From Clostridia bacterium (GTDB lineage: Bacteria > Bacillota > Clostridia > Christensenellales > Aristaeellaceae), in the NCBI GenBank assembly GCA_045599485.1, contig JAZRWA010000101.1, forward strand, positions 1 to 16,190: a stretch of DNA of 16,190 bases, in the 5' to 3' direction. Positions 702 to 15,082 of the stretch are shown in pieces (positions within the stretch are counted from its first letter, which is position 1; every line of letters starts with the position of its first letter). The notes beneath the pieces were generated by a model. That model saw only the letters and a list, made by a program, of their open reading frames with translations. It made no database searches and was not told the origin of the DNA. Position numbers and translations under genes: made by a program.

Positions 702-1094
702 TCACGATGGCAGCGGATACCACAGATTGTCCAGTTCGTTGCGGATCGCTTCCACATCCGGCATGCCCATGATCGAGCCGCTTGGGCGCAGCTTCATCAT
801 CAGTGCCTGAACGATGTATTCCTTCTGGTTGGCGAGCAGAATAAAGTTGGTATGGCTGTTTTGCCTGCGGATCTGTTCAATCATCGCAAAACTGTTGGTA
901 CCGGAGAGCGGTATCGCGGTGAAGACCACAGGACAGTCATGTGCCGAGGAAAAAGCAATGGCCTCGCCCGGCGACTCAAACGCTTTGGGCTCCGGTAATT
1001 CCGGCTGCTTTTTTCTCAGATACTTGAGGATGTCGACCACTTTGTGCTGCCGCTCGGCAACGTTGTCCACAACCAGCGTAAATTGGTCCTGCAT
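702..1094 (-). CDS. Stand-alone degenerate (pseudo-)receiver domain protein, paralog of the REC domain of the adjacent response regulator
   Basis: ORF 702..1115. I place the start at MQDQ (ATG 1094) because GGGAGGGGAG sits 5-8 nt upstream. It aligns along its length with the neighbouring RR receiver (VVFTAIPLSG vs VMFADIQMPV; HTNFILLAN vs RTNIVFVTG; both end in NL(W/R)YPLP). DD becomes DN, the acceptor Asp becomes Ala, the conserved Thr becomes Ala and the conserved Lys becomes Met. There is no output domain. Confidence 0.8.
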   Translation of the reverse strand: MQDQFTLVVDNVAERQHKVVDILKYLRKKQPELPEPKAFESPGEAIAFSSAHDCPVVFTAIPLSGTNSFAMIEQIRRQNSHTNFILLANQKEYIVQALMMKLRPSGSIMGMPDVEAIRNELDNLWYPLPS

Positions 1095-1117: not shown

Positions 1118-1150
1118 ATCATACACTGCCAATCGCACCAAAAGTGTACC
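1118..1150 (-). promoter_or_regulatory. Activator-type promoter, site A: GGTACACTTTTGGTGCG + 10 nt + TATGAT
   Basis: Minus-sense read 1150->1118: GGTACACTTTTGGTGCG attggcagtg TATGAT. The -10 box lies about 24 nt upstream of the ATG at 1094 and no TTGACA-like -35 is present. Same geometry as sites B and C. Confidence 0.6.
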
Positions 1151-1204
1151 AAGAAGGAGAAATAGCAAAATAAGTTCTTCTTTTTTTCAGCTGTTTTTCT
1201 TCGA

Positions 1205-1996
1205 TCAGCCGAGGATATCCGCCAGAGTATCCTCCGCCCAGCTGTACTGGCTCATGTACTCGCCGTGGAAAGCGCGGATGGCATAAGCCTCGCCCTTTTC
1301 CCAATCATAATAATCACAGAAAAGCAGGTTAACATCCAGCGAATAGGTATTGAAGCCCTTGATGAACACTTCGCCCATGCCCACGCTCTGCAGCGTTTTT
1401 TTCAGGTCGGCGCAGCTTTTGCGCAGGTCGGCTTTGTTGTTCACCTCGTTGCTGTCATCCTCATAGATCACGGCACAGATCTCGTTGCTGTTCACCTGCG
1501 CGCCGTGGCGGTCCACCAGAAAAGCCAGCAGTTCTTTGGTCTTGTGTCGTTCAAAGTGTACAGGCCGCCCTTCCACATACACCTCAAAATTGCCAAAGCA
1601 CTGCACCTTCAGCTTTTGCGGCTGCTGCTTCACAGGCAGCGGATAGCGCAGATTCTGCATCTCCTGCGCCACCGCCTCGGCGGTAGCGGGCTTTTGCAGG
1701 TAGCCGCTGAAATGCAGCGCCATCGCTTCGACCGCGTAATCCTCATAATAACCGGTCACAAACACAATGTTGGTACGGGGATACAGCTTTTTGACTGCCT
1801 TGGCCAGCTCAATGCCCGTCATCACCGGCATCTGGATATCCGCGAACATCACATCGGGTTGATTCTTGCCTGCCCATTCCAACGCTTTGACTGAATTATC
1901 AAAGCAGGTCAGTTCACAGTCCGGTACCGCCTTCAGAATGGCTTTTTCCAGCAGCTTCAGCTGCATCTGCTCATCATCTACGGCAATGATCCTCAT
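1205..1996 (-). CDS. Two-component response regulator: REC + SARP/OmpR-like winged-helix DNA-binding domain with a short BTAD-like tail
   Basis: 263 aa. The REC domain has intact DD (AVDDE), acceptor Asp (FADIQMP), Thr (FVTG) and Lys (LQKP). The C-terminal part reads VQCFGNFEVYVEGRPVHFERHKTKELLAFLVDRHG...DLRKSCADLKKTL...YSLDVNLLFCDYYDW, matching the SARP-type wHTH pattern. GGAGG RBS. The start overlaps the kinase stop (ATGA). Confidence 0.9.
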   Translation of the reverse strand: MRIIAVDDEQMQLKLLEKAILKAVPDCELTCFDNSVKALEWAGKNQPDVMFADIQMPVMTGIELAKAVKKLYPRTNIVFVTGYYEDYAVEAMALHFSGYLQKPATAEAVAQEMQNLRYPLPVKQQPQKLKVQCFGNFEVYVEGRPVHFERHKTKELLAFLVDRHGAQVNSNEICAVIYEDDSNEVNNKADLRKSCADLKKTLQSVGMGEVFIKGFNTYSLDVNLLFCDYYDWEKGEAYAIRAFHGEYMSQYSWAEDTLADILG

Positions 1997-3318
1997 ACTT
2001 GTTCCTCCTTCGGAATGTGGATGGTCACAGTCGTGCCCTGACCGATCACACTGTCAATTTCCAGATAACCGTTCACCATTTCCTTGAGGCGGTAACGCGC
2101 GCCGTCCAGCCCGATGTGTCTGCGATCGTCTGTATGTTTGGCCGCAGGGTCAAAGCCGGGGCCGTCATCAATGATGCGCACCACATGCTCCCTGGCCGTT
2201 TCCTCCGCTGTGACACGCACGGTGGTGGGCTCATATTTGGCGCTGACGCTGTAGCGCACGGCATTTTCCACCAGCGTCTGTAACGTCAGGGCGGGGATGA
2301 CAAAATTCTTTGTCTGAATATCATACACAATGTTCAGCCGGTTGGGGAAGCGGCGCTTTTCAATGTTCAGGTACTGCTCCACATGGTTCAGTTCGATCTC
2401 AAAGGGGATGGGCAGCTTGCTGCCGATAAACTTAAGATTGCCGCGCAAAAAATTGGAAAACTCGTTGGTGGCGCGCTCCGCCTCGGCAGGATCCTCGGTG
2501 CACAGAAAGGCGATGGAGGACAGCGCGTTGTACAAAAAGTGCGGCTGGATCTGCGACATCATCAATTCCATTTTGGTCTCGGTCATCTCGGCTTCCCTGC
2601 GGGCCAGCAGCGCCTTGTTTTCCAGCAGGCGCTCCCCCTGCGCGTTGTCGATGCGCGTATAGATCAGCATAAACGCCAGACCCGACACGATGCAGCCGCT
2701 GGAAAAATCGCAAAAAACATCCAGCACAAAGAAGGCAGTCGGCACGATGATGTAGCCAAGCATCAGCAGCAGCTCATTGAGCGGCATCACGCGGTGGTTT
2801 TTGATCAGCTCCACAGCAGCAACCACCGACCAGATGCAGCTGACGGCAAAGGCCAGCGGATACACTTCCGTCATGGCCTCCACGCCATAATCCTTCGTGC
2901 TGACCATCCATTCCCGGTTGAGGGAGAAAAACATCAGCACAAGCGCTGCCGCGCCGACCAATGCCACTGTTTTCAGATAGTTTTTTTCATTTTCCGGGCG
3001 CGTATGCACCTCGCGATGCGCAAGCGCGTAAATATAAGTGCGAACATACCAACAATACGCCGCGGCCGCCAGATAAGAAAACAGATACTCCAGAAAGATC
3101 AGCGTGACAAACAACGCGCGGGGATACACACCGGGCTTCCACAGCCACTCCAGCAAAGCGATCAGCTGCAGACCCGTCACCATCCCGCACTGCGAAATAA
3201 ACGGCGTGGACATCATCGTTTTGCTCTTTTTTGCCAGGCTGGAGATCAAAAGAATGAGCATATAGAGAAAGCTGACGCCCAGCATGGCGGCGTTCAGCAT
3301 CTCGCCCTGATACTGCAT
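1993..3318 (-). CDS. Sensor histidine kinase, LytS/YehU-type (His_kinase PF06580-like + HATPase_c) with a polytopic membrane N-terminal sensor
   Basis: ORF 1993..3375. The start is moved to MQYQ (ATG 3318) because GAGGAG lies 7 nt upstream and the longer ORF would overlap the predicted -10 box. There are about 6-7 TM helices, then the MSQIQPHFLYNALSSIAFLC signature and the ATPase motifs (LQTLVENAVRYS, IIDDGPGFD, GIGLDG...). No HAMP domain or large extracytoplasmic domain. Confidence 0.9.
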   Translation of the reverse strand: MQYQGEMLNAAMLGVSFLYMLILLISSLAKKSKTMMSTPFISQCGMVTGLQLIALLEWLWKPGVYPRALFVTLIFLEYLFSYLAAAAYCWYVRTYIYALAHREVHTRPENEKNYLKTVALVGAAALVLMFFSLNREWMVSTKDYGVEAMTEVYPLAFAVSCIWSVVAAVELIKNHRVMPLNELLLMLGYIIVPTAFFVLDVFCDFSSGCIVSGLAFMLIYTRIDNAQGERLLENKALLARREAEMTETKMELMMSQIQPHFLYNALSSIAFLCTEDPAEAERATNEFSNFLRGNLKFIGSKLPIPFEIELNHVEQYLNIEKRRFPNRLNIVYDIQTKNFVIPALTLQTLVENAVRYSVSAKYEPTTVRVTAEETAREHVVRIIDDGPGFDPAAKHTDDRRHIGLDGARYRLKEMVNGYLEIDSVIGQGTTVTIHIPKEEQV

Positions 3319-3365
3319 AGAAACACTCCTCGGTCCGTCAATGACAGGCAAAGCGCCCGATACAC

Positions 3366-3394
3366 AGTATAGCATAAAACCGCGCCCATCGTAA
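3366..3394 (-). promoter_or_regulatory. Candidate sigma-A promoter of the kinase-regulator operon (extended -10)
   Basis: Minus-sense TTACGA (3394-3389), 17 nt, then TGcTATACT (-10 at 3371-3366). The 8-nt direct repeat CGCGGTTT occurs twice (complement of 3393-3400 and 3377-3384) across the -35/spacer. Confidence 0.4.
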
Positions 3395-3430
3395 ACCGCG
3401 ATTGTTTCTGTCCTTTGGATAAATCTTTTG

Positions 3431-3468
3431 TCAAAAATCAGAAAAGCCCGCCGAAAAAATCAGCGGGC
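3431..3468 (-). terminator. Rho-independent terminator after the hdeD-like gene
   Basis: Minus-sense GCCCGC-(11 nt)-GCGGGC followed by UUUUCUGAUUUUU, about 18 nt downstream of the stop at 3486. Confidence 0.55.
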
Positions 3469-3485
3469 AAAATACCGTCAGGCAG

Positions 3486-4076
3486 TCATTCCTGCACAGC
3501 AAAGGCACGGAAGATCAGGTTGACGCCGATGATGACGGCATCCACACCGATATACATGCCGATGGTGATCATGGTGGCAAAGGGATGCATGAAGCTGATC
3601 ACGCCCAGCGCGACCATCAGAATACCCATCGCCAGCGAAACGCCCCAGTGACGGCTGAACTCACGCAGCATGGCCCGGGCTTTGCGTTCTTCGGAAGTGA
3701 CAGCCTCATATCGTTCGGCGTCCTTGCCCGCCGAACGCTGCTCAAACGCTTCAAAAATACGGACAGCGCCGGAAAAAACCAGCCACAGGGCCACAAAAGT
3801 GGCATATGCGGCTGCCAAGCCCAGCTGAAGCGCCCAGGAGCCCAGCAGCATCACGCCCAGAATGCCCGACAGGATACCGTTTGCCAGCAGCAGCCACGAA
3901 ACGCCCTGCCTGCGTCCCCGCCACCAGGCTGCCACACAGCAAACGGCTTCCGCCAGCATGGCAATGCCCATCAGGGTCGGGATCAACGTATACGCATCCA
4001 GGGGCAGCGTCATACAGCGGATGCCAAAGCCGATGGCCAGCAGACCAAACAAAAAGGAAAGCAGACCGATGATCAT
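3486..4076 (-). CDS. HdeD/DUF308-like polytopic membrane protein
   Basis: 196 aa with an AGGAGG RBS 8 nt upstream. It has six hydrophobic helices with repeated G-x3-I/L-x2-G spacing (GILSGILGVMLLG, AMGILMVALGVISF) typical of DUF308, and a charged central loop. Confidence 0.6.
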   Translation of the reverse strand: MIIGLLSFLFGLLAIGFGIRCMTLPLDAYTLIPTLMGIAMLAEAVCCVAAWWRGRRQGVSWLLLANGILSGILGVMLLGSWALQLGLAAAYATFVALWLVFSGAVRIFEAFEQRSAGKDAERYEAVTSEERKARAMLREFSRHWGVSLAMGILMVALGVISFMHPFATMITIGMYIGVDAVIIGVNLIFRAFAVQE

Positions 4077-4110
4077 TGTTTCTTCCTCCTGACAAATCGC
4101 AATACTCTGT

Positions 4111-4908
4111 TTATACCAGATAACGGGCTCTGAACTGTTTCTTCAGTGACTCATCCACGCCAAGTCCGTGCTCCAGAAAGGCGTCCATTGAGCCATACTG
4201 TTTTTCGGCCTCGTCCCACGCCGCCCGCAGATATTCCTCCCGCGCTTCCACCATCGCGCGGCCCGCGTGCGCCAGCTTCGTGTTTTTCGACAGCTTCTGC
4301 AGCATCGCCAGCATACCGGCAATTTCATCCTTCAGGCACTCGTTGGTAAACAGATAGTCCCGCAGGATATCCTCCTTGCTGACCCCCAGCACAAGCTGCA
4401 CCAGCACCGCGCCCCAACCACAGCGGTCTTTTCCGAGGGTGCAATGCCACAGCACCGCGCCATCCTCCACGGCCATGATCGACCGCAGAAAACGGCTGTA
4501 CTGCGCCCTGGAATACGCTGTCCGCACAAAATCGCGGTACAGATCACACATGGCCCGGCTGCCGGCCGCGTCGCTGTCTGCCGCTTCCATCTGCTTCATT
4601 CCCTGCTCGGAGCGGTCCTTTTCCCAGCTGAGCAGCGTCGAATCATCTATGATCGACAGGTGCTTGTATTCACACCCGCCCACGGAAGGTTCCGGCTTTT
4701 CCGCCGCTTCCTTCGGGTTTCTGAAATCCACGATCAGGCGCAGCGGTATGCTTTCAAGCAAGGCGATGTCATTTCCGGAAGCCTGATACAATTGCTCGCT
4801 GCGCAGCAGCAGACCGCTGCGGATGTGCTTTCCCTCCGCGCCGGTCATGCCGCCCAGATCGCGCAGGTTGTGCAGCTTCTCGCCGCGCAGGGGTTGACTT
4901 GTCATCAT
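4111..4908 (-). CDS. Protein-tyrosine phosphatase, Y_phosphatase3 (PF13350-like) family
   Basis: 265 aa. N-terminal NLRDLGG...IRSGLLLRSEQL...LIVDFRNPKE and the CX5R P-loop WHCTLGKDRCG. It is separated by only 34 nt from the hdeD-like gene, so they are probably co-transcribed. Confidence 0.85.
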   Translation of the reverse strand: MMTSQPLRGEKLHNLRDLGGMTGAEGKHIRSGLLLRSEQLYQASGNDIALLESIPLRLIVDFRNPKEAAEKPEPSVGGCEYKHLSIIDDSTLLSWEKDRSEQGMKQMEAADSDAAGSRAMCDLYRDFVRTAYSRAQYSRFLRSIMAVEDGAVLWHCTLGKDRCGWGAVLVQLVLGVSKEDILRDYLFTNECLKDEIAGMLAMLQKLSKNTKLAHAGRAMVEAREEYLRAAWDEAEKQYGSMDAFLEHGLGVDESLKKQFRARYLV

Positions 4909-4925
4909 GTGCTTTCTCTTCCTTG

Positions 4926-4964
4926 TTTTGATCGAAAAGGACCCCGCGGTGTCCCGCAGGGCCC
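4926..4964 (-). terminator. Strong hairpin / rho-independent terminator between the secreted-protein gene and the phosphatase gene
   Basis: Minus-sense GGGCCCUGCGG-GACA-CCGCGGGGUCC (11 bp including 2 G.U pairs) followed by UUUUCGAUCAAAAC. Confidence 0.6.
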
Positions 4965-4988
4965 TTTGTACCGGACCGGTATTTGATC

Positions 4989-5516
4989 TTACTTGCCGGT
5001 GTAGACAAAGTCCATATCGGACAGCACCTTCATGGCAACGGCAATGTCGTTCTCGCTCACGATCTCGCCGTCATTGGCCACGATCAGCATATCGATCATG
5101 TAGCCGTGATACAGGGTGACCAGCTCAGCGTAATCGATGACAGCGCTGTTTTCGTTGAGCAGGATCACATCGGTTTCAAACTCGGTCTTCAGCCAGGTCA
5201 CATTGGCATCATGGTAGTCTTCCATCAGGCTCAGAGTGAAGGCTTCCTGATCGGCTTCCTCCATGTCGTTGAGGCGCTCCAGATCGGCATACTCGTCATC
5301 CGGGCAGATCAGCAGCGTCAGCTGGGGGGCGTTTTCCTTGCTCATGCGGATGAGCTTGTACATGCCGTTGTCTTCGACGGTCACTTCATAGTCCGCGGGG
5401 AAAACCATGTTCAGGGTCAGGTTGTTGTCGTACACAACAGGGGTCTTGGCGGTTTCAGCCAGGGCGATGCCCATCAGCATCATGACAGCCATAACGATAG
5501 CAAGCAGCTTTTTCAT
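4989..5516 (-). CDS. Secreted hypothetical protein (Sec signal peptide)
   Basis: ORF 4989..5543. The start is placed at MKKLLAIVMAV (ATG 5516) because AGGAGG lies 8-9 nt upstream. The signal peptide ends in IALA/ETAK. The mature protein is acidic and I recognise no domain. Confidence 0.75.
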   Translation of the reverse strand: MKKLLAIVMAVMMLMGIALAETAKTPVVYDNNLTLNMVFPADYEVTVEDNGMYKLIRMSKENAPQLTLLICPDDEYADLERLNDMEEADQEAFTLSLMEDYHDANVTWLKTEFETDVILLNENSAVIDYAELVTLYHGYMIDMLIVANDGEIVSENDIAVAMKVLSDMDFVYTGK

Positions 5517-5552
5517 AGCGATTATCCTCCTATATCCATCCATTCGGGGTGA

Positions 5553-6236
5553 TTACTGGGCAGCGCCGACGGCTTCGGGCTCGTCGATGTTGAACAGCAG
5601 CTCCAGAATCGCGGCTTCCACATCCTCATTCAGCTCCAGCAGGGGGTTAACGTTGTTGGTCAGGATGAAGCCCACATGGCCGTCCGCCAGATCCAGCACC
5701 TGAGACCAGGTCTTGCTCTGAGCCAGCACCAGCAGCTGTTCACCAGCCAGGTACTGAGCAGAATAACGGGCGCTGGTGTTGGGGATCCAACGCAGATGCA
5801 CATAGTTGGAAGGACGGGAAGTCACAACTTCAGCCAGTACGGGATATTCCAGGGGCTTGATCTGGCGCACGGCGGCATCCACATCCTCATAGGTGGGGCC
5901 TTCGGGCTTTTTCCAGGGGCCGGGGTTCTTGGTCACCAGGAAGGACTTGGCAACCCACATGTTGGTGCTGTTGCCGGCCTTCTTCCACAGGTTTTCATCA
6001 TAGGGACGAACCAGGCACCAGTCGCCGTGGGTATCGATCACTTCTACCTGAGTACCATAGGGCAGCTGGAAGAAAACTTCATTGTCGCTGCCGGGGCCGG
6101 AGCGCACGTTCAGGGGCTTGCCGTTGCCGGTCTTGACAAAACGGGAATTGGGGTTGCTCACGGCAAAGGCCATGGTAGGCATCAGCATGGCGGCGATCAG
6201 GGCCATAAGGAGCAAAACGGAAAGGGTGCGTTTCAT
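5553..6236 (-). CDS. Secreted protein with two bacterial SH3 (SH3b/SH3_3-like) domains
   Basis: ORF 5553..6245. The start is placed at MKRTLSVLLL (ATG 6236), with AGGAGG 9 nt upstream. Signal peptide ...TMAFA/VSNP. The first SH3b-like unit is KPLNVRSGPGSDNEVFFQLPYGTQVEVIDTHGDWCLV and the second is YVHLRWIPNTSARYSAQYLAGEQLLVLAQSKTWSQVLDLADGHVGFI. No catalytic domain seen. Confidence 0.8.
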   Translation of the reverse strand: MKRTLSVLLLMALIAAMLMPTMAFAVSNPNSRFVKTGNGKPLNVRSGPGSDNEVFFQLPYGTQVEVIDTHGDWCLVRPYDENLWKKAGNSTNMWVAKSFLVTKNPGPWKKPEGPTYEDVDAAVRQIKPLEYPVLAEVVTSRPSNYVHLRWIPNTSARYSAQYLAGEQLLVLAQSKTWSQVLDLADGHVGFILTNNVNPLLELNEDVEAAILELLFNIDEPEAVGAAQ

Positions 6237-6316
6237 AACAATCATTCCTCCTGAAAATCTTTCGTATTGATATCGTCAGCCGTCGTTTGCGGTGGCTTTA
6301 TCAATCTGACAGTGCC

Positions 6317-6349
6317 AGTATAACAGGTCAGGTGTACCAAAAGCGTACC
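6317..6349 (-). promoter_or_regulatory. Activator-type promoter, site B: GGTACGCTTTTGGTACA + 10 nt + TATACT
   Basis: Minus-sense read 6349->6317: GGTACGCTTTTGGTACA cctgacctgt TATACT (TGt gives an extended -10). It lies about 80 nt upstream of the ATG at 6236 and is preceded by an A/T-rich tract. Confidence 0.6.
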
Positions 6350-6394
6350 TGTAAAAATCAAAAAATGCATTTTTCAATATTTTTTATTTTTTTC

Positions 6395-6434
6395 AGACAG
6401 CAAAAAAGCAGACCCCGCAGCAACGCGGGGTCTG
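6395..6434 (-). terminator. Rho-independent terminator of the amidohydrolase operon
   Basis: Perfect 11-bp stem GCAGACCCCGC / GCGGGGUCUGC (6408-6418 and 6424-6434), followed on the minus strand by UUUUUUGCUGUCUGAAAAAAAU. Confidence 0.85.
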
Positions 6435-6465
6435 CCGATCCGGGATGACGGTTTGTTTCGGACGG

Positions 6466-6762
6466 TCAGCTGTCCTTTTTGCCAAAGCGCAGGCTCATGC
6501 TGGCCAGGCGGCCCGCCAGCAGCCGGCTGTAGCGCTTGCCGGAGCGCTCCTGCAGCAGGTAACGGACCAGGGTATCGGCAAAGAACCAGAATACGATGTA
6601 GAAAAACTCGTGTGCGATGTCGATCACAAAATGCGCAAAGGTCAGAAACACGCCCATGCCGACGCAGCCGGCGATCATCCACAAAAAGTTTCTGAACGCG
6701 GCATTTTCCTGTTCTTCCGCCTCACCCAGGGCATAGAGCATATCGGTCCTGACGGTCGTCAT
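6466..6762 (-). CDS. Small membrane protein (2 predicted TM helices), hypothetical; possibly the C-terminal part of a TAG-interrupted gene
   Basis: 98 aa with hydrophobic stretches FLWMIAGCVGMGVFLTFAHFVI and FFYIVFWFFADTLV and a basic tail. The RBS is weak (AGGAAAG). It is in the same frame as 6805..7044, with no other stop between them. Confidence 0.55.
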   Translation of the reverse strand: MTTVRTDMLYALGEAEEQENAAFRNFLWMIAGCVGMGVFLTFAHFVIDIAHEFFYIVFWFFADTLVRYLLQERSGKRYSRLLAGRLASMSLRFGKKDS

Positions 6763-6804
6763 GATGCTTTCCTGCTGCTGTTTGGAAAACTCGGGGCCGT
6801 CGAT

Positions 6805-7044
6805 CTACAGCACAATGCCGTATTCATCGGGAATAAAACGGATGATGTCCAGGATATACGCCTGAAAATCCGGGTTCAGCGTTTCGCAGCCCTCCACACT
6901 GTAGGGGCTGATGATGTCGCTGTAATCGCGGACGCGGCAGGGAATGATCGCCTGATCGCCTTCCAGAAACGTATGCCGCACCATCTGATCCAGATTGGCC
7001 TTTTTATGCAAAAAAGCGCTGCGGTTTTGGGCTTTCCAGTTCAT
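6805..7044 (-). CDS. Small soluble hypothetical protein (79 aa) ending in the only TAG stop in the window
   Basis: ORF with a GAAAGG RBS about 9 nt upstream, 35 nt downstream of the amidohydrolase stop. Stop = TAG (complement of 6805-6807). The frame continues open into the 6466..6762 ORF. Confidence 0.55.
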   Translation of the reverse strand: MNWKAQNRSAFLHKKANLDQMVRHTFLEGDQAIIPCRVRDYSDIISPYSVEGCETLNPDFQAYILDIIRFIPDEYGIVL

Positions 7045-7079
7045 GATGTCGTGCCTTTCTGCCGTTATACGGTGCGTTT

Positions 7080-8705
7080 TTATGCCTGATAAACGGCCTG
7101 TCCGTCCACAATGGTGGCCACAAGCTTGGCCTTGGCAATGTCACGCACATCGGTATAGTGGATAAAGTCGCGGTCATACACCGAGGCGTTGGCCACCTTG
7201 CCGATGACCAGCGTGCCCAGATGATGCTCCTGACGGAAAAGATACGCCACGTTGGTGGTCATCGCCAGCAGGGCCCGCAGGGAGCTGATGCCTTCCTCCG
7301 CCACCATGGTGGAGCGCGGTCCCGCCTCGGGGTTCTGACGTTTCACGGCACAATACACAGACTTGGGCACATTCATTTCGGAGGACACAGGATAATCGGT
7401 ATGGAAGCAGATGTTGGCGCCGGCATCCTCAAAGGACTTGAGCGGGTAGCTGCTCCAGGCACGGTCCTCGCCGATATATTCGATCTCCTGCTTGAAATAC
7501 AGCGGGCTGATGGGCGCCCACAGGGGAGCCACCACAGCGCCCACATTGTAATCGCCGCAGCGCTTGATGTCCTCGGGACGGATCAGCTGCAGATGCGCCA
7601 GCGAGTTGCGGGCATTGAAGTTGCAGGTCTCCTCCTGTACCGCCTGATAGGCGTCCAGCATCAGCTTGGAAGCGCCGTCGCCGATGGAATGCGTATGCAC
7701 ACTGAAGCCCGCCTCGTTGGCGGAGCGCACCAGCGCGATCAGCTTGTCCACATCCTTCATATTGCACACGCCGCGGTAGCCGGGCTGGTCATCATAGGGC
7801 TCCAGCAGGTAGCCGGTATGTGCCTCCACCACGCCGTCCAGCACCATCTTCTGACCGGCGATATGGAAATATTCCGAATCGTATTTGGCGGCTTCCTCCC
7901 GGAGGATCTCGCCGATCCTTTCCGGAGCGGACGCGGCATAGGGCATGTTGATGGGGAAGGCAAAGGTACGCAGCTTCCACTTGCCCTCGGCCACCAGCTC
8001 GGCATAGGCGTCCAGGGAGCCGGGATACATATCCGCCAGCGCTTCGCCCACCGCGGTGATGCCCTGTGAAAAAGCAAACTGCTGCCAGCACAAAAGGCCT
8101 TCCTTCAGTTCCTCCTTGGTGATGGGGAAGGCGTTGCGCGGCACCGTGGTGCCCTGCTCGCAGACCACACCGCTGGGCTCGCCGTTCTCATCGGCATGGA
8201 CCTGCGCCTCGCCCAGCTCTTTCACCGTCTCGGCGGTATAATGGCAGGCCTTGAGCGCGGCGGTATTCAGCCACATGGAGTGACCGTCGATGGAGGTCAG
8301 CACCACCGGCACATCGGGAGCGACGGCATCCAGCATCTGACGGGTGGGCTCCTCATGCTTTTCCCAGCCCGCACCGCGGTAGCAGGCACGGCCGGGATGC
8401 TCTTCAATAAAACGGCGTACCATCTCCACGTATTCCGGCATGCTCTTGCCGGGAACCAGGTTGCATTCAAAAGCCAAACGCTGGCCGGCCATCAGGCCAT
8501 GGGTGTGGGCATCCATAAAGCCGGGATAGACCACATTCTCGCCATAATCCTGCACACAGGTGGTGTCATCCTTCATGGTCATGGCCACCTCGCGGCTGCC
8601 GATATAGGCGATCAGACCGTCCTTGACGGCCATGGCCTCCGCCGTGGGTCGGTCGGTATCCAGGGTCACGATCCTGCCCAAAATAATCTGATCTGCTTTC
8701 ATCAT
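7080..8705 (-). CDS. Metal-dependent amidohydrolase, Amidohydro_3 (YtcJ-like) family
   Basis: 541 aa. The N-terminal beta-sandwich (ILGRIVTLD...AMAVKDGLIAYIG) is followed by the PGFMDAHTH metal-binding HxH motif, later HTHSIGD and a C-terminal FHTDYPV. GAGAGGA RBS. Confidence 0.9.
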   Translation of the reverse strand: MMKADQIILGRIVTLDTDRPTAEAMAVKDGLIAYIGSREVAMTMKDDTTCVQDYGENVVYPGFMDAHTHGLMAGQRLAFECNLVPGKSMPEYVEMVRRFIEEHPGRACYRGAGWEKHEEPTRQMLDAVAPDVPVVLTSIDGHSMWLNTAALKACHYTAETVKELGEAQVHADENGEPSGVVCEQGTTVPRNAFPITKEELKEGLLCWQQFAFSQGITAVGEALADMYPGSLDAYAELVAEGKWKLRTFAFPINMPYAASAPERIGEILREEAAKYDSEYFHIAGQKMVLDGVVEAHTGYLLEPYDDQPGYRGVCNMKDVDKLIALVRSANEAGFSVHTHSIGDGASKLMLDAYQAVQEETCNFNARNSLAHLQLIRPEDIKRCGDYNVGAVVAPLWAPISPLYFKQEIEYIGEDRAWSSYPLKSFEDAGANICFHTDYPVSSEMNVPKSVYCAVKRQNPEAGPRSTMVAEEGISSLRALLAMTTNVAYLFRQEHHLGTLVIGKVANASVYDRDFIHYTDVRDIAKAKLVATIVDGQAVYQA

Positions 8706-8822
8706 GGTGATATCCTCTCATTTTTGGTTTCATTGACTGGATTTTGCTGCGCACGTTTGTTTTGCCGCACAATACGCAGTAACTTTTATGCTGCGTTCCG
8801 TCTGATACAGAACGCCAAGGAT

Positions 8823-8855
8823 AATATACCACAAAATGCGTACTGAAAGTGTACC
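8823..8855 (-). promoter_or_regulatory. Activator-type promoter, site C: GGTACACTTTCAGTACG + 10 nt + TATATT
   Basis: Minus-sense read 8855->8823: GGTACACTTTCAGTACG cattttgtgg TATATT (TGTGg matches the TRTGn -16 element). It lies about 118 nt upstream of the ATG at 8705, with an A-tract (GACAAAAAAAGAAAAA) immediately upstream. Confidence 0.6.
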
Positions 8856-8907: not shown

Positions 8908-8927
8908 CTTTGCTTGCACTTTGCTTG
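8908..8927 (+). repeat. Tandem direct repeat CTTTGCTTG x2 with 11-bp periodicity, overlapping the -35 of the plus-strand operon promoter
   Basis: CTTTGCTTG at 8908-8916 and 8919-8927, separated by CA. Confidence 0.7.
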
Positions 8928-8954
8928 ATTTTGTTCGGCAGGCTATGCTATAAT
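8925..8954 (+). promoter_or_regulatory. Sigma-A type promoter of the PLC-like/ThyX-like/MFS/comFC operon
   Basis: TTGATT (8925-8930), 18 nt, then TATGcTATAAT (TRTGn + TATAAT at 8949-8954). The ATG is 33 nt downstream, preceded by an AGGAGGG RBS. Confidence 0.65.
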
Positions 8955-8986: not shown

Positions 8987-9955
8987 ATGCCGGATATCCT
9001 GGCACACTACTGTCTGGGCGACCGCGTTTTGCGCGCGATGGCGCCGCAGCTGCAAAAAAACATCCACCGCGGGCTGTTCGATCTGGCCACGCTGGGCCCC
9101 GACCCCTGGTTCTCCTACCGTTTTTATCTGCCCTCCAGGCAGGAAGGCAAGCCCGCCCGCGGCGGGCAGATGCACAACAGAAAGACCGGTGCTTTTCTGA
9201 CCGTGCTGTGCCGTGAAGCACAGCAGAGCGCCGAAAAGGATCTGCTTTTTTCCTATCTTGCCGGTTTTTTGTGTCATTACGCGCTGGACAGTGCCGCCCA
9301 CCCCTACATCATTTACCGCACGGGGCACTATGACGGCACCGAGGCGACACGGATGTATCGCGGCAACCACACCTATCTGGAGCGCGCGCTGGACCTGCTG
9401 GTCATGAAAAAGGAAAACCTGCCCGCCCGTCCCATCCTGAAAAAGGTGTTGTATATGCGCCGTCTGCCGGACGGCGTCCGCGCCGGGCTGGACAGCGTTT
9501 TCAAGGCCGTCTACGGCTGGGAAAACGCCGCCGCCGATATGGACCGCTGCATCTTTTCACAAAGATTGTTTTATCTTCTGATGCAGGACCGCACCGGCCT
9601 GCTCGATCGTCTGCTGCGCCGTGTGGATAACGGCAAAAGCAAAAATGACCTGACCTCGCTGTGTTATTACGGCAAGGAACGTCCGCACATCGACGTTGCC
9701 AATGCGGCACACAATGAGTGGACACATCCCTGCGACGAGAACGAGGTCAGCCGTGACTCCTTCTTTGACCGCATGGATCAGGCTGCAGGGCAGGCGGAAA
9801 AATGGATCGCCGCGGCCGCCCGGTGCATCTACAACGGTGAAGCGATCACCGAAAACATGTTTGAAAACCGTTCCTACGAAACGGGCTTTGACTGCGAAGA
9901 CAGCCGGCATACACGGACGCTTTGCTGCAAGCCTTTCAACATCAAGGAGAAATAA
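8987..9955 (+). CDS. Zinc-dependent phospholipase C / P1-nuclease superfamily protein
   Basis: 322 aa. N-terminal MPDILAHYCLG, then LGPDPWF, QMHNRKTGAF and GFLCHYALDSAAHPYI, the His/Asp pattern of the cytoplasmic Zn_dep_PLPC-like family common in Firmicutes. No signal peptide. Confidence 0.75.
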   Translation: MPDILAHYCLGDRVLRAMAPQLQKNIHRGLFDLATLGPDPWFSYRFYLPSRQEGKPARGGQMHNRKTGAFLTVLCREAQQSAEKDLLFSYLAGFLCHYALDSAAHPYIIYRTGHYDGTEATRMYRGNHTYLERALDLLVMKKENLPARPILKKVLYMRRLPDGVRAGLDSVFKAVYGWENAAADMDRCIFSQRLFYLLMQDRTGLLDRLLRRVDNGKSKNDLTSLCYYGKERPHIDVANAAHNEWTHPCDENEVSRDSFFDRMDQAAGQAEKWIAAAARCIYNGEAITENMFENRSYETGFDCEDSRHTRTLCCKPFNIKEK

Positions 9956-10553: not shown

Positions 10554-11858
10554 ATGAAAGGCAAAACCAAGCGTTTTTCCCGTGCGGAATGGTCCTGGAT
10601 CTTCTATGACTGGGCCAACTCCGTCTACGCCACCAACATCATGGCGGCGATCTTCCCCATCCTGTACAACAAGATCGCCGATCCCACCGGCAGTCAGCTG
10701 TACGGCTATGCCGTGTCGCTGGCCAACCTGGCGGTGGCGGCGCTGGCGCCCTTCCTCGGCTCCATTGCCGATTTCCGCGGCATGAAAAAAAAGCTGTGGT
10801 TTGGCTTTATGCTCATCGGCGCTGTCTTTACGGGTCTGATGGGTCTGGTAGGCAGCTGGCAATTGATGCTGGTGGGTCTGGTCATCAGCCGCATCGGCTT
10901 CTCGGGCTCCTGCCTGTTCTATGACAGCTTCCTGACCGATGTCACCACCGCCGACCGCATGGACAAGGTCAGCACCTGGGGCTACGCCATGGGCTACATC
11001 GGCGGCAGCACCATCCCCTTCCTCATCTCCATTGCCGTCATGCTGGTGATGGACATGAACGAGCTGTCCATGCGCCTTGCCGTGCTGATCGTGCCCGTTT
11101 GGTGGCTGGTGTTCTCCGTGCCCTTCATGAAGCACGTGCATCAGATCAGCTACGTCGATACGCCCCGCAAGGAGCTGATCGGCTCCGCGTGGAAGAATGT
11201 GTGGGTCACCGCCCGCCAGATCATCAAAAACAAGGCGGTCTTCTTCTTCCTGGCGGCATACTTCTTCTACATTGACGGCGTGGACACCATCATTTCCATG
11301 GCCACCAACTACGGCGATACGCTGGGACTGGGCACCATCGGCATGGTGCTGGCGCTGCTCGTCACGCAGATCGTGGCCATGCCCTGCTCCATCCTGTTTG
11401 GCAACTGGAGCCGCAAGCTGGGTGCTTTGAAGCTGATCACCGCGGCGGTCATGATGTATGCTTTCATCACCGTGGTGGGCTTTGCCATGGGCTTCACGGT
11501 GGACTTCCACGACATGCTGGGTCTGACCGCCGAAGCCGCGCTGACGATTGGCAATGTTCTGTTCTGGATCCTGGCGACGCTGGTAGGCACCGTGCAGGGC
11601 GGCATTCAGGCCCTGAGCCGCAGCTACTTCGGTCAGCTCATTCCGGCTGAACGCAGCGGCGAATACTATGGCTTTATGGATATCTTCGGCAAGTTTGCCT
11701 GCGTCATCGGCCCCGCGCTGTACGAGCTGGTGTACGGCCTGACGCAGAAGGCCTCCTTCGGCATTCTGTCGCTGATCCTGCTGTTTGTGCTGGGCGGCGT
11801 ATTCCTGCTCATCGGCAAGCCTTACTTCAAGGCTGTTGAGCACGAACGTGTCGGCTGA
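10554..11858 (+). CDS. MFS transporter, UMF1 / Atg22-like family
   Basis: 434 aa. The N-terminal signature WSWIFYDWANSVYATNI is typical of UMF1. About 12 TM helices. GGAGG RBS 7 nt upstream. Confidence 0.85.
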   Translation: MKGKTKRFSRAEWSWIFYDWANSVYATNIMAAIFPILYNKIADPTGSQLYGYAVSLANLAVAALAPFLGSIADFRGMKKKLWFGFMLIGAVFTGLMGLVGSWQLMLVGLVISRIGFSGSCLFYDSFLTDVTTADRMDKVSTWGYAMGYIGGSTIPFLISIAVMLVMDMNELSMRLAVLIVPVWWLVFSVPFMKHVHQISYVDTPRKELIGSAWKNVWVTARQIIKNKAVFFFLAAYFFYIDGVDTIISMATNYGDTLGLGTIGMVLALLVTQIVAMPCSILFGNWSRKLGALKLITAAVMMYAFITVVGFAMGFTVDFHDMLGLTAEAALTIGNVLFWILATLVGTVQGGIQALSRSYFGQLIPAERSGEYYGFMDIFGKFACVIGPALYELVYGLTQKASFGILSLILLFVLGGVFLLIGKPYFKAVEHERVG

Positions 11859-14281: not shown

Positions 14282-15082
14282 ATGCTGAAATACAAGGATG
14301 AGATCGCGGGCAACACCGATACAGGGCTGCTCAAATGGCTGGCACTGATCTTTATGATCATCGACCATGTCGGCGTACGCTTTTGCGGCAACATGCTGGA
14401 AATGCGTATTCTCGGACGTATCGCCTTTCCGCTGTACTGCTGGTGCATCGTGGTGGGTGCCTGTCACACGCGCAGTATGCCGCGCTATGCCCTGCGGCTG
14501 CTGATCGCGGCAGTCATCTCCCAGCCGCTGTACATGCTGGGCATGCATCATGCCTGGCGGAACGGCAATGTCTTTTTTACGCTGCTGCTGGGGTTGATGG
14601 GCATCTGGGGCATGCGTGAAAACAGGTCGGGCTCCCGCCTGTGGGCACCTGCGGCGGTGCTGCTGATGACATCGGTATACAGCACCGATTACGGCTGGAA
14701 GGGCGTGCTGCTCATGATGCTTTTGTATCTGGCAAGGGAACGCCGCGGCGCCATCGCCGCCGTAATGATCGCCTTCTGCGCCTTCTGGGGTCAGGGCACC
14801 ACCGCTGTCAATGCCCTTTTCGGCATGAAGCTTTCGCGCATTCCCTATCTCGGAGACTTTTTTGCTCTCAACTTTGTATCACCCTTTTTGCACCTGCAGG
14901 CCATGGCGCTGCTGGCACTTCCCCTGATCCTGATCCGAAATAAACGCCGCACCCACTTCCCCCGCTGGGCGGCCTACGCGGCTTACCCCGCGCACCTACT
15001 GATCATCTGGCTGATTCAGCTGCTGACAGGCATGCTGACCCTTCAAAGCGCGTTGCCCGTGCTGTTCCCCTTCCTGTCGTGA
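14282..15082 (+). CDS. TraX family membrane protein
   Basis: ORF 14261..15082. The start is moved to MLKYK (ATG 14282) because the first ATG lies inside the terminator T-tract. The signature LLKWLALIFMIIDHVGVRF and multiple TM helices are typical of TraX (PF05857-like). Confidence 0.75.
   Translation: MLKYKDEIAGNTDTGLLKWLALIFMIIDHVGVRFCGNMLEMRILGRIAFPLYCWCIVVGACHTRSMPRYALRLLIAAVISQPLYMLGMHHAWRNGNVFFTLLLGLMGIWGMRENRSGSRLWAPAAVLLMTSVYSTDYGWKGVLLMMLLYLARERRGAIAAVMIAFCAFWGQGTTAVNALFGMKLSRIPYLGDFFALNFVSPFLHLQAMALLALPLILIRNKRRTHFPRWAAYAAYPAHLLIIWLIQLLTGMLTLQSALPVLFPFLS

Follow-up and report, generated by a model that had tools for sequence, protein, structure and literature searches.

Three promoters of a Clostridia bacterium with a direct-repeat box in place of the -35 element: probable operator sites of a locally encoded response regulator with a SARP-like output domain

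A stretch of 16,190 nt from a Clostridia bacterium (contig JAZRWA010000101.1, assembly GCA_045599485.1; referred to throughout as the window) carries three minus-strand promoters in which a box of two directly repeated hexamers lies where a -35 element would be expected. The same stretch encodes a two-component system, in which a membrane histidine kinase is paired with a response regulator (1205 to 1996, minus strand). The analysis presented here indicates that the three boxes are probably operator sites of this locally encoded regulator, which, judging from comparison with about ninety related loci, would bind them as a tandem phosphorylated dimer that replaces recognition of a -35 element.

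Site coordinates are given in gene sense, as read along the minus strand. Site A (1150 to 1118) comprises GGTACACTTTTGGTGCG attggcagtg TATGAT, site B (6349 to 6317) comprises GGTACGCTTTTGGTACA cctgacctgt TATACT, and site C (8855 to 8823) comprises GGTACACTTTCAGTACG cattttgtgg TATATT, in each case letter for letter as set out in an earlier, sequence-only reading of the same DNA. The pattern GGTACRCTTTYRGTRCR has three exact matches in the window, all on the minus strand (1150-1134, 6349-6333 and 8855-8839), and no other exact copy of the 17-mer is present on either strand. Twelve of the 17 box positions are invariant across the three sites, the two pentamers start 11 bp apart, and 10 nt separate the box from a TATNNT hexamer in all three, which agrees with what that reading had described. 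The box of site A (1134 to 1150, GGTACA-CTTTT-GGTGCG) begins 55 nt past the stop codon of the regulator gene and is followed, 10 nt further on, by the -10 hexamer TATGAT (1118 to 1123); transcription is predicted to start near position 1111, which would leave a leader of 17 nt, including a GGAGG ribosome-binding site, ahead of the ATG at 1094. The boxes of site B (6333 to 6349, GGTACG-CTTTT-GGTACA) and site C (8839 to 8855, GGTACA-CTTTC-AGTACG) are associated with the -10 hexamers TATACT (6317 to 6322) and TATATT (8823 to 8828), with the extended -10 motifs TGT and TGG ahead of them, respectively. The supposed lack of a -35 element is evident at all three sites, with none of six positions matching TTGACA when spacers of 16, 17 or 18 nt are allowed. 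A-rich tracts lie upstream of all three sites, each of which is intergenic and points at minus-strand genes, namely 702-1094 for site A, 5553-6236/6245 and the genes downstream for site B, and 7080-8705 and the genes downstream for site C.

The consensus proposed earlier was derived from only these three sites in the window, and it might therefore reflect a chance resemblance, or the remnant of a promoter duplication, with no shared regulation behind it. A search of the window with the degenerate 17-mer, allowing up to three mismatches, returned four matches where 0.42 would be expected, and none of 200 shuffles reached four, although this test is circular in that the pattern was derived from the three sites themselves; the fourth match (14374-14390, plus strand, three mismatches) has no -10 hexamer. 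An independent 33-nt weight matrix, built only from 17 GGTAC-type sites of other organisms, nevertheless picks out exactly the same three sites, with scores of 43.5 bits for site B, 36.9 bits for site C and 30.9 bits for site A; the next best position on either strand scores 3.8 bits, at least 27 bits lower. Alignment of the three site regions with five sites from relatives showed identity to be limited to the box and the -10 hexamer, which indicates that the sites are not duplicated promoter segments; a duplicated segment was accordingly rejected as an explanation, the flanks of the sites being unrelated and failing to align. Since orthologous target genes in other genomes also carry the box, the chance and duplication explanations can be regarded as effectively refuted.

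The evidence from orthologous targets is as follows. Retention of the box upstream of orthologues, wherever the two-component system is itself retained, was the point on which the earlier proposal stood to fail, and GGTAC boxes are indeed present in relatives whose regulators are 73-82% identical to that of the window. In these close relatives the boxes are located before the genes for a receiver-like protein (described below as the pseudo-receiver), the amidohydrolase, a 192-residue membrane protein and the kinase operon. The locus with a 79% identical regulator (L081) has GGTACG-CTTTT-GGTACG upstream of the kinase gene, and three to four GGTAC units between the regulator and pseudo-receiver genes. 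The locus with an 82% identical regulator (L137) has two divergent GGTACA-CTTTT-GGTACA boxes, one facing an Amidohydro_3 gene whose product is 45% identical to that of the window, the other facing a counterpart of window 7044-6466 (87% identical) that has the kinase and regulator genes behind it. A third locus (L138, regulator 73% identical) has four units before a pseudo-receiver gene (57% identical to that of the window) and five before a gene encoding a 929-residue protein. With increasing distance the unit drifts while the geometry is unchanged, from GGTAC to GGTGC at 64% regulator identity (L082-84, with GGTGCA-GGTTT-GGTGCA between regulator and pseudo-receiver) and to GGAGC at 62-65% identity (L139 and L140, with three to four GGAGCA units in the same place). 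Additionally, an unlinked metagenome contig (L091) carries divergent genes for a DUF308 protein (75% identical) and a Y_phosphatase3 protein (68% identical), each with its own GGTAC box and a TATACT -10 hexamer. A link between box and target that survives gene rearrangement in this way is hard to explain except by a shared regulator.

Arrays of three to five units with a strict 11-bp period were observed in several of the close relatives (L138, 3256-3300 and 3908-3960; L081, 10809-10850; L139, approximately 10920-10965; L140, approximately 4210-4250), whereas the sites in the window have two units only. This difference suggests that cooperativity may be graded between promoters.

Every position of 80 related loci (81 counting the window) was scanned using a score that rewarded a pair of mutually similar hexamers offset by 11 bp, a spacer resembling CTTTT and a -10 hexamer at 26-28 nt, with the sequence of the hexamer left free. 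The architecture proved to be about 15-fold more frequent in the 80 related loci than in shuffles. The strict scan returned 50 sites in 32 loci as opposed to 2-6 sites in shuffles; by score, there were 87 sites at 14 or above (7 and 3 in shuffles) and 50 at 15 or above (0 and 1 in shuffles). Collapse of overlapping matches gave 75 sites in 41 of the 81 loci. A third of these (25 sites, in 24 loci) lie within 200 nt past the stop codon of the regulator gene and on the same strand, where uniform placement would put 0.53, an enrichment of about 47-fold; site A of the window is placed likewise. The regulator's strand accounts for 59 of the 75 sites, and a homologue of the kinase is encoded directly upstream of the regulator in 59 of the 81 loci. 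The exact 10-nt distance to the -10 hexamer seen in the window recurs in 69 of the 75 sites, a count that leans towards the 27-nt offset because the score docks one point for offsets of 26 and 28 nt. Features that were not used in selecting the sites are conserved also, including a T ahead of the first unit (39 of 45 sites), a weaker CTT after the second unit and the TG of an extended -10 (of 45 sites, 31 have the T and 26 the G), which argues that the sites are real promoters. As in the window, no -35 element was detected in the family sites, the relevant positions reading CRCTTT, with none of six matching TTGACA in any register.

The hexamer itself varies from system to system, with GTTGCA, GTGGCA, GGTGCA, GTTACG, GCCGTA, CCGACA, ACTGGA, GTCACG, GTCCGT, GTAACA, GGTATA and GGAGCA all being represented, yet the same hexamer occupies both half-sites of a given site and recurs in all sites of a given locus. 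Where two paralogous systems are encoded in one locus (L047, L051 and L060), each is followed by its own type of box. Regulators with similar recognition helices tend to be grouped with similar hexamers: helices of the type ...EEDHKSYLRNLIADI occur with GTGGCA, ...DVKNSSYLRQL with GTAACA, ...DDNTGxYLQKLKKDL with GTTATA or GGTATA, and ...YDRSxQKxxDVIVRSL with TTGGAC. In 40 pairs of regulator and box, the distance between hexamers is correlated with that between recognition helices (r = 0.54), and in a Mantel-type test, by which shared ancestry is not fully removed, a partial correlation of 0.41 remains once receiver-domain distance is taken into account (none of 2000 permutations gave this value), compared with 0.04 for the reverse partial correlation. 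The correlation between helix and hexamer supports the proposal that the neighbouring regulator is the protein that reads the hexamer.

A different reader of the box, either an alternative sigma factor or a transcription factor encoded elsewhere, was considered in the light of these data. In favour of such a reader, GGTAC-type boxes are found on metagenome contigs where no regulator homologue is visible on the stretch that was fetched. A scan of metagenomes for the exact box gave 52 matches (no chance expectation was computed for that collection), of which seven stretches (L088, L091, L092, L104, L108, L119 and L124) contain a regulator or kinase homologue or orthologous targets. Neither hexamer, on the other hand, is at a workable -35 distance, being 11 or 22 nt from the -10, and the hexamer changes between systems while the geometry stays constant, as would be expected of a paralogous family of DNA-binding proteins rather than of one sigma factor. 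A promoter of an alternative or extracytoplasmic function (ECF) sigma factor was rejected on these two grounds. Furthermore, only the regulator and kinase consistently adjoin the sites, with the enrichment just past the regulator gene noted above, and no other open reading frame (ORF) in the window has a DNA-binding Pfam domain. A reader other than the regulator thus appears very improbable. About a dozen of the 52 matches to the box are one recurrent element, 'ggtacaccaatacGGTACACTTTC(A/G)GTACAcaaaatttccTACATTcaatctatcata', on marine contigs (L085-L087, L096, L100-L103, L107 and L123), with no regulator homologue on the stretches fetched.

The regulator, a protein of 263 residues, has an N-terminal receiver domain (PF00072, E = 4.7e-21) with D7/D8, D53, T81 and K102 intact, the last three being invariant in 48 homologues. 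The receiver is the only part of the protein detected by Pfam and NCBIfam, its closest named relatives being BtsR and LytR, and the C-terminal 138 residues have no Pfam match even at E <= 1, BTAD (PF03704) included. A full-length AlphaFold2 (AF2) model built with 48 homologues, with a predicted local distance difference test (pLDDT) score of 88.9, aligns over about 230 columns with the OmpR/PhoB-family proteins PrrA, RpaA, DrrB, DrrD, VanR and KdpE (E about 1e-9). The model of the C-terminal 138 residues (pLDDT 95.3) has SARPs as its top six matches in the PDB, namely AfsR (8HVR, 8K60) and EmbR (2FF4, 2FEZ), with query template modelling (TM) scores of 0.70-0.75 over about 160 columns, whereas for DNA-binding domains of the OmpR/PhoB type the alignment is limited to about 85 columns and the TM-scores are around 0.5. 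A sequence profile of the output domain likewise has EmbR as its best match in the PDB (E = 0.003), in an alignment that takes in the winged helix together with the first of the helices behind it. The earlier description of the regulator as SARP/OmpR-like is borne out by these matches. The winged helix is followed by about 40 residues that form three short helices, and the output domain (residues ~126-263) is, as modelled, a winged helix of the SARP type in which no more than a stub of the activation domain is present.

Several homologues are labelled 'LytT family' by the Joint Genome Institute (JGI), and both these names and the type of kinase suggested a LytTR regulator. This assignment was rejected because there is no PF04397 match and the fold is a winged helix; given a confident model of that different fold, the JGI label appears to be wrong for the DNA-binding half of the protein. 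The resemblance to LytTR regulators such as LytT/BtsR, AgrA, ComE and VirR lies in the kinase type, in the similar receiver and in the fact that they too bind promoter-adjacent direct repeats, but the output domain in the window is an alpha/beta winged helix and not the beta-fold LytTR domain. CdtR of C. difficile was examined as a possible characterised relative and is not related, being described in the relevant paper as a genuine LytTR protein.

The arrangement of the sites resembles that of pho boxes and SARP repeats, as the sequence-only reading had also suggested, in its 11-bp period, in the position of the box over the -35 region and in the fixed short distance to the -10. SARP targets contain direct repeats 11 or 22 bp apart, the 3' repeat being 8 bp from the -10, and the 22-bp afs box extends from -40 to -19 (centre -29.5), where a side-by-side dimer presents an alternative docking surface for sigma region 4 in a process termed 'sigma adaptation' (PMC10936776). 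The pho box consists of two 11-nt units, each with a conserved and a less conserved, AT-rich part, which are bound head-to-tail (PMC4415409). With SARPs (AfsR, ActII-ORF4, DnrI, RedD and EmbR of M. tuberculosis), which include the best structural matches of the DNA-binding domain, the present system shares 11-bp direct repeats, a 22-bp box that covers the -35 region and the spacer, a -10 at a short and fixed distance, a -35 that is poor or lacking and, in relatives of the window, arrays of three to five units such as occur in some SARP promoters. It differs in that a phospho-receiver is joined to the domain and the partner kinase is of the LytS/YesM type, known SARPs being stand-alone or fused to NOD/TPR modules; in having about 40 residues after the winged helix as opposed to an all-helical activation domain of about 150 residues; in being missed by the Pfam BTAD and Trans_reg_C models; and in a 3' hexamer that ends 10 bp from the -10 (9 bp if counted as a heptamer) rather than 8 bp, an offset of 1-2 bp. 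The hosts are gut and rumen Bacillota and not actinomycetes, and the targets are not antibiotic clusters. The regulator is thus not a SARP in the strict sense, lacking a complete activation domain and a BTAD match, being fused to a receiver, and belonging to another phylum with other targets. OmpR/PhoB proteins offer the combination of a receiver with a winged-helix effector, and a box of two 11-nt units that replaces the -35, but here the partner kinase is of the PF06580 and not the HisKA (PF00512) type, a pairing that is repeated in relatives; the closest named relatives of the receiver are those given above; the domain has an extra SARP-like helical extension after the wing; and, despite the shared fold, the regulator has no match to PF00486. 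By sequence criteria, namely the absence of PF00486 and the PF06580 kinase, it does not belong to the OmpR/PhoB family either. By analogy, it is expected to work in the manner of a SARP or PhoB activator.

A mechanism can be put forward on this basis. The polytopic membrane kinase (1993 to 3375, minus strand) would phosphorylate the regulator on D53, and the regulator would then bind as a head-to-tail tandem pair, with one winged-helix domain for each 11-bp unit. The recognition helix, at residues ~183-200, is proposed to read the variable hexamer, GGTACR in the window; the CTTTT tract, which is invariant, probably lies opposite the wing in the minor groove. On the assumption that transcription starts 7 nt past the -10, with starts expected near 1111, 6310 and 8816, the 22-bp box would span about -39 to -18, with its centre at -28.5, and so occupy most of the spacer along with the position where the -35 is missing. 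The bound pair would recruit or position sigma-A RNA polymerase, which would be held at the extended -10. Expression of three units would be switched on as a result: unit A, encoding the pseudo-receiver; unit B, encoding a secreted SH3b protein, a 184-residue protein, a tyrosine-phosphatase-family protein and a DUF308 membrane protein; and unit C, encoding an Amidohydro_3 enzyme and a small membrane protein. The scan for regulon members covered the window, and the regulon may be larger than these three units.

The same occupancy could in principle have the opposite effect, with the regulator bound to the -35 and spacer region keeping RNA polymerase from promoters whose activity otherwise comes from the extended -10. 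The box does overlap the core promoter, many of the family sites have TGn-TATAAT and would be able to work without a -35, and the output domain retains a mere stub of the SARP activation domain. Conversely, 69 of 75 sites keep the distance to the -10 to the exact base pair (in a score that penalised other offsets by one point), which is needless for a steric block but needed for contact with polymerase, and the -35 is wholly absent in all registers. The structurally closest proteins known to act with such geometry, the SARPs and PhoB at pho boxes, are all activators, and the boxes that precede the regulator's own operon in relatives are those of a usual positive autoregulation. Taken together, base-pair-exact spacing across divergent systems, the lack of a -35 and the boxes before the own operon in relatives favour activation by contact over occlusion, and repression is considered unlikely.

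Several points weigh against the proposal that the regulator activates transcription from the three boxes. Comparison shows the motif and its geometry, its statistical and evolutionary association with the regulator family and with the target genes, and the SARP-like fold of the regulator, and we infer from it the binding itself, the preference for activation over repression, the contacts with polymerase and the role of the pseudo-receiver. No box, even a degenerate one, was found before the kinase gene in the window, unlike the situation in L081 and L137. At the stringent threshold only 41 of the 81 loci have a site, possibly because the others have spacers that deviate (GGTTT, for instance), contigs that are cut short or targets that are unlinked. 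The relation between helix and hexamer is not one-to-one, since on other metagenome contigs GGTAC boxes are also found close to regulators whose recognition helices are quite different, and the ancestry shared among regulators may account for part of the correlation in the Mantel-type test. Given that the output domain keeps only its short helical stub of about 40 residues, the polymerase contacts described for AfsR are not simply transferable to it, and extended -10 promoters can work without a -35, such that a protein bound at -39 to -18 might repress them.

Between 8705 and 702 every gene is encoded on the minus strand. Read as they are transcribed, box C is followed by the Amidohydro_3 gene, the gene for the 192-residue protein and a terminator; box B by four genes and a terminator; then come the kinase and regulator genes; and box A is followed by the gene for the receiver-like protein of 130 residues and a terminator. 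In the kinase (460 residues), a polytopic membrane region that makes up the N-terminal 250 residues or so precedes the PF06580 His_kinase (LytS/YesM type) and HATPase_c domains, and the kinase gene overlaps that of the regulator by 4 nt. The four genes of unit B (3486 to 6245), as annotated with Pfam, encode the secreted SH3b protein (5553-6236/6245), the 184-residue protein of unknown function (4989-5543), the Y_phosphatase3 protein (4111-4908) and a DUF308/HdeD-like membrane protein (3486-4076). Unit C (6466 to 8705) comprises the genes for the Amidohydro_3 enzyme (7080-8705, from Pfam) and the 192-residue membrane protein (6466-7044). Terminator-like hairpins on the minus strand are positioned at 6407 to 6436, where a strong hairpin of 13 pairs closes unit C just upstream of site B, at 3446 to 3468, between unit B and the kinase-regulator operon, and at 648 to 680, where the unit of site A is closed.

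Some further features of unit C and its surroundings were recorded. The gene at 6466-7044 has an in-frame stop codon at 6805-6807 ('EYGIVL*IDGP'), at a position where the 87% identical relative (L137, 3204-3782) has Glu ('EYGIVLEIVGP'); this could be either a nonsense mutation that makes the gene a pseudogene or a sequencing error. The leader of the amidohydrolase gene (8706-8822, minus strand, ~110 nt) contains two short hairpins (GCGTTC...GAACGC and CGCAG...CTGCG), and no Rfam match to a structured RNA was found in the leaders or elsewhere in the window. Divergent from site C, at 8925-8954 on the plus strand, is a near-consensus sigma-70-type promoter with an extended -10 (TTGATT-18-TATAAT with TG), which faces a gene for a Zn-dependent phospholipase-C-like protein (8987-9955, plus strand). 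Since there is no box on the plus strand there, this gene is probably outside the regulon.

The product of the gene under site A (702 to 1094, minus strand), a paralogue of the receiver domain of the regulator, has no output domain and matches Pfam Response_reg with E = 6.9e-4 only, which is below the curated cut-off. It had been described as a degenerate receiver, and it does lack the phospho-acceptor Asp: in an alignment with the regulator's own receiver domain, which extends to the NLxYPLP linker motif, D53 is replaced by Ala, T81 by Ala and K102 by Gly, substitutions from which it follows that the usual mode of phosphorylation is closed to the protein. Orthologues are encoded behind the regulator gene in L081, L082-84 and L138, those of L081 and L082 also being without the Asp, and stand-alone receivers occupy the same position in two unrelated paralogous systems (L047 and L051). 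As the protein appears to be unphosphorylatable and its own gene is preceded by a box, it is most economically read as a feedback partner, and we infer that it is most likely a modulator that pairs with the receiver of the regulator or with the kinase.

The targets in more distant relatives appear to be diverse. In eight loci (L006, L025, L027, L034, L035, L037, L058 and L064) the gene directly behind the regulator-proximal box often encodes a very large secreted protein, of 800-1970 residues; among the six of these examined with Pfam (L006, L025, L027, L034, L058 and L064), those of L025, L027, L034 and L058 have Listeria-Bacteroides repeats, MBG, YDG, Big_2 or MAM domains. Other targets in relatives include a Cache-HAMP-GGDEF protein (a diguanylate cyclase), an MscS channel and a SpoIIE-type phosphatase. 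In Lachnospiraceae (L012, 3319-3747; L020, L032, L047 and L060), proteins of ~145-157 residues with a signal peptide are encoded downstream of GTTGCR boxes, and the L012 protein, the only one of this set that was scanned, has matches to PF18895 T4SS_pilin and TrbC/VirB2, such that some systems of the regulator family may control conjugation-type pilins.

The output domain alone is represented by 2,129 cluster representatives (at 50% identity) at E <= 1e-3 and by 1,378 at E <= 1e-10. Most of these are 255-275 residues in length with the domain at about 125-260, that is, with the receiver-plus-domain architecture seen in the window. Two peptide patterns taken from the output domain identified at least 574 confirmed loci in species-representative genomes, those among the matches listed being mostly from Oscillospiraceae, Lachnospiraceae, Ruminococcus, Erysipelotrichaceae and other Bacillota of gut and rumen. 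The best relative among the genome-collection matches listed is only 59% identical, and precomputed PF00486 assignments were present for only 2 of the 120 listed homologues. Three proteins of 416-428 residues (P0121, P0122 and P0125) combine two tandem SARP-like domains with a receiver in one chain, and a fourth, of 323 residues (P0124), has two tandem SARP-like domains without a receiver. These look like natural 'covalent dimers' suited to a two-unit box, and such fusions fit the model of one domain per repeat unit.

No description of a receiver-SARP regulator in Firmicutes, of its pairing with a LytS-type kinase or of the box sequence was found in a literature search in which subscription journals were poorly covered, and the regulator family is provisionally regarded as undescribed. 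On balance, the evidence leans slightly towards a broader view, in which the locus is one instance of a large undescribed class of Bacillota two-component systems, with at least 574 loci in species-representative genomes and, counting the output domain alone, at least 1,378 clusters at 50% identity. Each would combine a LytS-type kinase with a receiver joined to a minimal SARP-like domain, and each paralogous system would have its own private hexamer within an invariant frame (T-rich tract, hexamer, CTTTT, hexamer, 10 nt, extended -10), so as to form mutually insulated pairs. Some systems of the class would include a pseudo-receiver as a feedback partner, and some variants would have two fused DNA-binding domains.

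For thousands of regulators in gut and rumen Firmicutes, labelled either 'response regulator' or, wrongly, 'LytT family', the output domain would thereby gain a fold, a DNA-recognition grammar and predicted targets. Because the box has a fixed place, usually right past the regulator gene, regulons should be readable from sequence in uncultured organisms. The natural series of hexamers and recognition helices within one rigid promoter frame offers material for a winged-helix recognition code and could supply orthogonal switches for anaerobes. These data suggest, moreover, that SARP-style activation with a box that replaces the -35 is not confined to actinomycetes and can be put under phospho-control; if the broader view is true, SARP-type 'sigma adaptation' would reach beyond the antibiotic clusters of actinomycetes to switches of gut anaerobes that are controlled by phosphorylation.

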